This document shows, in pieces, positions 13,061 through 13,250 of a stretch of DNA of 64,000 bases. Location: NCBI RefSeq assembly GCF_003334815.1, contig NZ_QOWO01000005.1; one strand, given 5' to 3'. The notes under the pieces are model-generated. The model was not told the DNA's origin. It worked only from the letters and a program-made list of their open reading frames with translations, and made no database searches. The DNA comes from Escherichia coli (lineage in GTDB: Bacteria; Pseudomonadota; Gammaproteobacteria; Enterobacterales; Enterobacteriaceae). The translations under genes and the position numbers were made by a program. Positions within the stretch are counted from its first letter, which is position 1. Each line of letters opens with the position of its first letter.

Positions 13061-13202
13061 TTCAGTACCTCACGACTCGGACAAAATGTCGTTGCGCGCA
13101 CAGTACAGCGCAACTTATTTTGTTAAAAACATGTAAATGATTTTTTATTGTGCGCTCAGTATAGGAAGGGTGTTTTCGGCTACAATCAAAACATGCCCGA
13201 AT

Positions 13203-13217
13203 GTGCACCAGGTGCAC
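13203..13217. promoter_or_regulatory. Perfect 15-bp palindrome GTGCACCaGGTGCAC in the mhpR/mhpA divergent control region, candidate MhpR operator
   Basis: Exact inverted repeat in the 190-bp intergenic region between divergently oriented mhpA and mhpR; IclR-family regulators bind palindromes. Confidence 0.45.
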
Positions 13218-13250
13218 CACGTTGTTTTAACTATAGAAATGTCAATTAAT

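Follow-up and report, generated by a model that had tools for sequence, protein, structure and literature searches.

The 15-bp palindrome in the mhpA/mhpR spacer of Escherichia coli is very probably the known operator of the activator MhpR

The closest described system, published in 2003, comes from E. coli K-12, where the IclR-type activator MhpR has its operator at Pa, the catabolic promoter of the mhpABCDFE operon. Table 1 of a comparative study and review of the IclR family lists GGTGCACCTGGTGCACA as the motif bound by MhpR in E. coli and cites Torres 2003 for it (PMC8222616). MhpR activates Pa in dependence on 3-hydroxyphenylpropionate (3HPP), and CRP needs MhpR in order to bind at this promoter (PMC8753852). 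The relevant passage of a further study, which refers to Manso 2009, states that binding of MhpR to its operator is stimulated by 3HPP and by phenylpropionate (PP) (PMC11237407).

The window analyzed here, a stretch of 64,000 nucleotides, contains the mhp/lac region of E. coli (mhpA/mhpR/lacI/lacZ). A 321-bp query around the palindrome found matches in 4897 of 5426 complete E. coli genomes, where the matching segment carries the annotations mhpA and mhpR. The mhpR product was assigned to the MhpR equivalog model (NCBIfam NF007341, 343.9 bits at a cut-off of 269), and its Pfam domains are HTH_IclR and IclR_C. The genes and the palindrome are located as follows.

11396..13060, minus strand: mhpA hydroxylase, with which the regulated catabolic operon begins (RefSeq; NCBIfam NF004827, 1288 bits)
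13251..14084, plus strand: mhpR, IclR-family activator (RefSeq annotation of a 100%-identical record; NCBIfam; Pfam)
14161..15243: lacI (mapped from the 100%-identical record)
from 15366: lacZ (mapped from the 100%-identical record)
13203..13217: core operator GTGCAC-CAG-GTGCAC, GTGCACCAGGTGCAC, a perfect 7-1-7 palindrome with hexamers that are near-invariant in 78 species
13202..13218 (K-12 367,677..367,693), minus strand (the mhpA strand): 17-bp MhpR motif GGTGCACCTGGTGCACA, the reverse complement being identical to the entry in Table 1 of PMC8222616

The mhpA gene of the window is an intact open reading frame of 554 amino acids, unlike the copy in NZ_CP025842.1 (L001, 1397..3061), a pseudogene according to RefSeq, with a stop inside the reading frame; the spacer of that record is 100% identical to the window.

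The intergenic spacer between mhpA and mhpR has a length of 190 bp and corresponds exactly to positions 13061..13250. It contains the palindrome, whose arms GTGCACC and GGTGCAC comprise seven nucleotides each and enclose a central A. A second reading of the same site, extended to 13203..13220, is that of two tandem 9-bp units, GTGCACCAG and GTGCACCAC. The original prediction had reported an exact 15-bp inverted repeat here, 34 nt from the ATG of mhpR and about 145 nt from that of mhpA. Its sequence and coordinates are right, and so are the distances: the mhpR ATG (13251) lies 34 nt after the final base of the palindrome, and the mhpA start (13060) lies 143 nt from its first base.

In statistical terms, a bare palindrome of such a size is nothing unusual. 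The window holds seven perfect 7-1-7 palindromes, compared to 4.6 ± 2.0 in dinucleotide shuffles, and approximately 10.6% of shuffled 190-bp spacers contain some perfect palindrome with arms of seven nucleotides and a spacer of 0-6 nt. The 15-mer itself occurs in a single copy within the 64 kb, and the same is true for the pattern GTGCAC-N3-GTGCAC with up to one mismatch. As palindromy as such is no rarer than chance, the significance of the site has to come from the match to the literature and from its conservation across species. Read from 13218 to 13202, the sequence is identical to the listed MhpR motif at every letter. Together with the IclR-type gene next to it, this identity bears out the proposal that the palindrome is a site of MhpR, and we regard it as very probable that it is the operator of this activator at promoter Pa of mhpABCDFE. 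The operator was therefore correctly picked from sequence alone and is already known; as a discovery the finding carries little weight, as the switch has been characterized since 2003.

The conservation was analyzed in one genome per species, which yielded 80 loci with an MhpR homologue of 54-98% identity. They belong to the genera Escherichia, Citrobacter, Kluyvera, Shimwellia, Edaphovirga, Pluralibacter, Pseudomonas, Stutzerimonas, Azotobacter, Azomonas, Marinobacterium, Zobellella, Nitrincola, Oceanospirillum, Xanthobacter and Vibrio. The motif GTGCAC-N3-GTGCAC is located upstream of the mhpR homologue in 78 of the 80 loci (69 exact, nine with one mismatch), while about 0.03 exact matches are expected by chance in the 523 kb searched. 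It is usually present in a single copy per locus of approximately 6.8 kb. Two Vibrio loci do not contain it within 500 bp upstream of the homologue. These are V. cincinnatiensis and V. furnissii (L022 and L031), whose homologues show 68-73% identity and have no adjoining mhpA; possibly these proteins are paralogues that use a different operator.

If the 78 sequences are anchored at the motif, each of the twelve hexamer positions carries 1.76-2.0 bits of information, compared to 0.6-0.9 bits for the three central ones. The seventh arm pair of the E. coli palindrome (C..G) is not conserved. With fixed hexamers, a variable center and a variable seventh pair, the unit under selection is therefore the pair of GTGCAC hexamers 9 bp apart, and the combination of fixed hexamers with three free central nucleotides is what base-specific contacts of a protein would produce. 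The motif is positioned at -33..-58 relative to the extrapolated mhpR start in 72 of the 78 species, with spacer lengths from 118 to 467 bp. Such a conserved core with its promoter spacing is of modest use for the annotation of mhp regulons and for the design of biosensors for 3HPP or phenylpropionate.

In Marinobacterium spp. and in Pseudomonas sp. TTU2014-080ASC a second exact GTGCAC-N3-GTGCAC was found just downstream of mhpR (L041:2671, L046:3801, L055:3823, L080:3843). The second copies face an mhpB-like gene, and the order of elements is the same: the operator, a T-tract GTTTTT, TTG as part of the -35 element, and the -10 element. This arrangement implies two putative MhpR-controlled promoters in these loci.

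Within Escherichia some variation was observed at the site. The exact 30-mer 13196..13225 is present in at least 1490 of 4901 E. coli records, a lower bound because polymorphisms in the flanks break the megablast word. Among the Escherichia sequences inspected position 13218 is either C or A, the latter turning the 17-mer into a perfect palindrome, and the flank reads gcccgaat, gtctgaat or gcctgaat. E. whittamii has GTGCAT as left hexamer. E. coli Z1323HEC0011 (L082, NZ_CP148385.1) carries an 18-bp insertion between window positions 13202 and 13203, so that its operator comprises four tandem 9-bp units instead of two (three times GTGCACCAG plus GTGCACCAC). This looks like a slipped-strand expansion, or else an assembly artefact. 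With the insertion there would be twice as many GTGCAC hexamers, and the mhpR-side part of the spacer would lie 18 bp further away from Pa.

With strict criteria a sigma-70 consensus scan of the spacer returned no promoter. This result fits activator-dependent promoters and lends no independent support to Pa. The promoter elements of Pa were therefore derived by phylogenetic footprinting.

13180..13185, minus strand: putative -35-like hexamer TTGTAG of Pa (plus strand CTACAA, which does not vary among the aligned enteric sequences)
13158..13163, minus strand: putative -10 hexamer TATACT of Pa (AGTATA invariant in 15 enteric sequences; 16-nt spacer from TTGTAG)
13151..13152, minus strand: predicted transcription start of Pa, deduced from the -10 hexamer (palindrome center 13210 at -58/-59)
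13240..13255: weak CRP-like sequence TGTCA-N6-ATGCA, candidate CRP site of Pa, overlapping the mhpR ATG (4 mismatches to the consensus)

Of the 78 motif-bearing species, 69 have the -35-like element at position -23 relative to the motif start, and 72 have a -10-like element at a distance of 45-47 nt (-45 to -47) from it. In these species the putative promoter elements keep a fixed distance to the motif, as is required for an activator site. From the two hexamers TTGTAG and TATACT with their 16-nt spacer we predict that the leftward transcript starts at 13151/13152, which positions the center of the palindrome at -58/-59. The 2003 work of Torres is said to give -58 for the MhpR site and -95.5 for the CRP site of Pa. 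The center of the CRP-like sequence (13247.5) lies 95.5 bp from 13152 and would correspond to this latter position. ATGTCA, which belongs to the CRP-like sequence at the mhpR ATG, is kept in Escherichia, Citrobacter and some Kluyvera.

The following mechanism is suggested. MhpR, stimulated by 3HPP and PP, would bind the two GTGCAC hexamers, with its site centered approximately 58 bp before the predicted start of the leftward Pa transcript (in agreement with the position reported for Torres 2003) and just upstream of the weak -35 element. From this operator it would activate RNA polymerase, and it would also let cAMP-CRP bind to the poor CRP site further upstream. The operon would therefore require the inducer as well as the absence of glucose. 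The switch limits the degradation of plant-derived 3HPP by E. coli to situations in which 3HPP is available and there is no glucose.

A further aspect concerns the position of the operator relative to the promoter of mhpR itself.

13143, plus strand: transcription start of mhpR (from database-derived annotations, fixed by the positions of the ArcA and the CRP site)
13120..13151, plus strand: ArcA site with three direct repeats, TTGTTAAAAACATGTAAATGATTTTTTATTGT (supplements of PMC3798270; the block is kept in enterics)
13084..13105, plus strand: CRP site belonging to the mhpR promoter, with TGTCG-N6-GCACA (13087..13102) as its core
13222..13229, plus strand: conserved block TTGTTTTA, at a distance of 4 nt from the operator on its mhpR side

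According to the supplements of PMC3798270 the ArcA site of mhpR covers K-12 positions 367744..367775, equivalent to window positions 13151..13120, and is located at -23..+9; the same source counts mhpR-lacI among the ArcA-repressed operons, with a 23.9-fold change. For the promoter mhpRp2 the Reg-Seq preprint, in an entry that cites Manso 2011, gives a CRP site at -38..-59. Positions 13087..13102 represent the only match to the CRP consensus (up to three mismatches) in the spacer and coincide with -59..-38 of a start at 13143. Both sites taken together therefore place the mhpR start at 13143 and the palindrome at +61..+75 of the mhpR transcript, inside a leader of 108 nt. The original prediction had implied a location upstream of the mhpR promoter; this part of the geometry has to be corrected, as the operator lies within the mhpR leader. 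In Pseudomonas the distance from the end of the operator to the mhpR start codon with its ribosome-binding site AAGGA is approximately 24 nt, and the operator-in-leader arrangement seems to be general. The ArcA repeats cover both the mhpR start at 13143 and the predicted Pa start at 13151/2, and if the latter is correct, the two divergent transcripts would share about 9 nt at their 5' ends.

The TTGTTTTA block, with the general form TTG(T/A)TTT(A), is highly conserved at +19..+26 from the motif start in most of the 78 species. It is missing beside the second-copy operators downstream of mhpR, and we therefore consider that it probably belongs to mhpR expression and not to MhpR binding; a role as part of the MhpR contact surface is unlikely for the same reason. 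The block was also considered as the -35 element of a second mhpR promoter, which was rejected since the Pseudomonas start codon of mhpR is no more than about 15 nt away.

Several other readings of the palindrome were weighed against that of an MhpR operator. The frequency of perfect palindromes with 7-nt arms in shuffled sequence would be compatible with a chance event, in which two ApaLI-type GTGCAC sites happen to be adjacent without any function, but such a coincidence is practically negligible in view of the exact match to a published operator, and it is refuted by the occurrence at the equivalent place in nearly all species analyzed. The palindrome could instead form an RNA hairpin in the 5' leader of mhpR and serve as an attenuator, a terminator-like structure or a stability element before a U-rich run. 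A terminator scan does flag 13203..13217 together with CACGTTGTTT, and the U-rich TTGTTTTA block is conserved. However, the isolated hairpin reaches -7.4 kcal/mol with a z-score of -0.6 against shuffled sequences, the fold of the 118-nt leader is equally unremarkable (z = +0.31) with a minimum-energy structure that does not contain the hairpin, and the U-run is interrupted and begins 4 nt past the stem. Moreover, the rare variants of the hexamers are one-sided and have no compensatory changes; the invariance concerns the sequence and not just the pairing. An intrinsic terminator or attenuator was rejected on the energies, the shuffles and the absent covariation, and the hairpin in its wider sense is a very remote prospect. 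A CRP site at the palindrome was likewise rejected: TGTGC-ACCAGG-TGCAC has five mismatches to the consensus, and no match to TGTGA-N6-TCACA with up to three mismatches overlaps 13203..13217. That the palindrome is, or is also, the physiological target of another regulator is best discussed for NtrC. Its consensus, the NtrC box TGCACCAnnnTGGTGCA, is TGCACCA-N3-TGGTGCA (17 bp), and in genomic SELEX its peak no. 1 (88%) was observed at K-12 position 367,650, equivalent to window position ~13245, in the mhpR/mhpA spacer (PMC8743547). The palindrome can be read as G-TGCACCA-GGTGCA-C and then contains the half-sites TGCACC and GGTGCA. Yet these stand 4 bp closer together than in the NtrC box, SELEX is an in vitro method whose resolution cannot pin the peak to the palindrome, neither a sigma-54 promoter nor a link of mhp to nitrogen was found, and the conservation of the motif follows the mhpR homologues. 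We consider a physiological NtrC target very unlikely; the in vitro binding of NtrC is probably a cross-binding caused by the half-sites.

The remaining question is whether the MhpR operator also mediates autoregulation of mhpR, which had been raised as a possibility. Bound at +61..+75, MhpR could act as a roadblock for RNA polymerase coming from the mhpR promoter Pr, or modulate it in another way. The position within the E. coli leader would allow this, and the Pseudomonas operator shortly before the start codon must be transcribed or overlap with the promoter as well; the narrow range of distances to the mhpR start, in spite of spacers of very different length, points in the same direction, although a compact divergent region can bring it about by itself. 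The palindrome does not overlap the -35 and -10 elements or the start (13143) of mhpR. Both the 2003 work of Torres and the abstract of Manso from 2011 are said to describe the mhpR promoter, Pr in the latter, as MhpR-independent. A PmhpR:lux fusion was constitutive in wild-type MG1655 with or without 3HPP or PP, which is stated to agree with Torres 2003 (PMC11237407), and autoregulation thus lacks support and is unlikely. Equally doubtful, though worth noting, is a second and unrecognized function of the site, which the operator, conserved in or directly before the mhpR leader across gamma-proteobacteria, and the conserved TTGTTTTA block on the mhpR side only may reflect: MhpR might roadblock or tune its own synthesis under other conditions, or there might be cross-talk with NtrC or ArcA at the overlapping divergent promoters.

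Compared to known systems, the MhpR operator of the window and that of Pa in E. coli K-12 (Torres 2003) share the same 17 bp, GGTGCACCTGGTGCACA, the same locus and the same neighbors; we see no difference and regard them as the same element. What is added to the K-12 operator is that its core and the -35/-10 spacing are kept from Enterobacterales to Pseudomonas, Azotobacter, Marinobacterium, Nitrincola and a Xanthobacter. With the NtrC box TGCACCAnnnTGGTGCA it has both half-sites in common, as well as the SELEX peak in the spacer, and it differs by the 4 bp shorter half-site spacing and by the lack of any enhancer-dependent sigma-54 promoter found here. The self-repressing IclR-type operators, iclR and allR being examples, resemble it in the adjacent regulator gene and in a site near the 5' end of this gene, whereas the MhpR site at +61..+75 is off the -35 and -10 elements of mhpR and the mhpR promoter is reported to be constitutive with regard to the inducers. 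The operators of PcaU, PobR and PcaR are also short palindromes in the divergent spacer between a regulator gene and a catabolic operon, and the regulators that bind them are of the IclR type and control aromatic catabolism. The nearest non-MhpR NCBIfam model of MhpR is TIGR02431 pcaR_pcaU, with 126 bits and thereby under the cut-off of the model. The half-site is GTGCA(C) for MhpR and GTNCG in the PcaU/PobR/PcaR branch. While PcaU and PobR possess a third half-site as a direct repeat, none is visible at the MhpR operator, where the conserved flanks (CTACAA..AAAAC and TTGTTTTA) are unlike GTGCAC.
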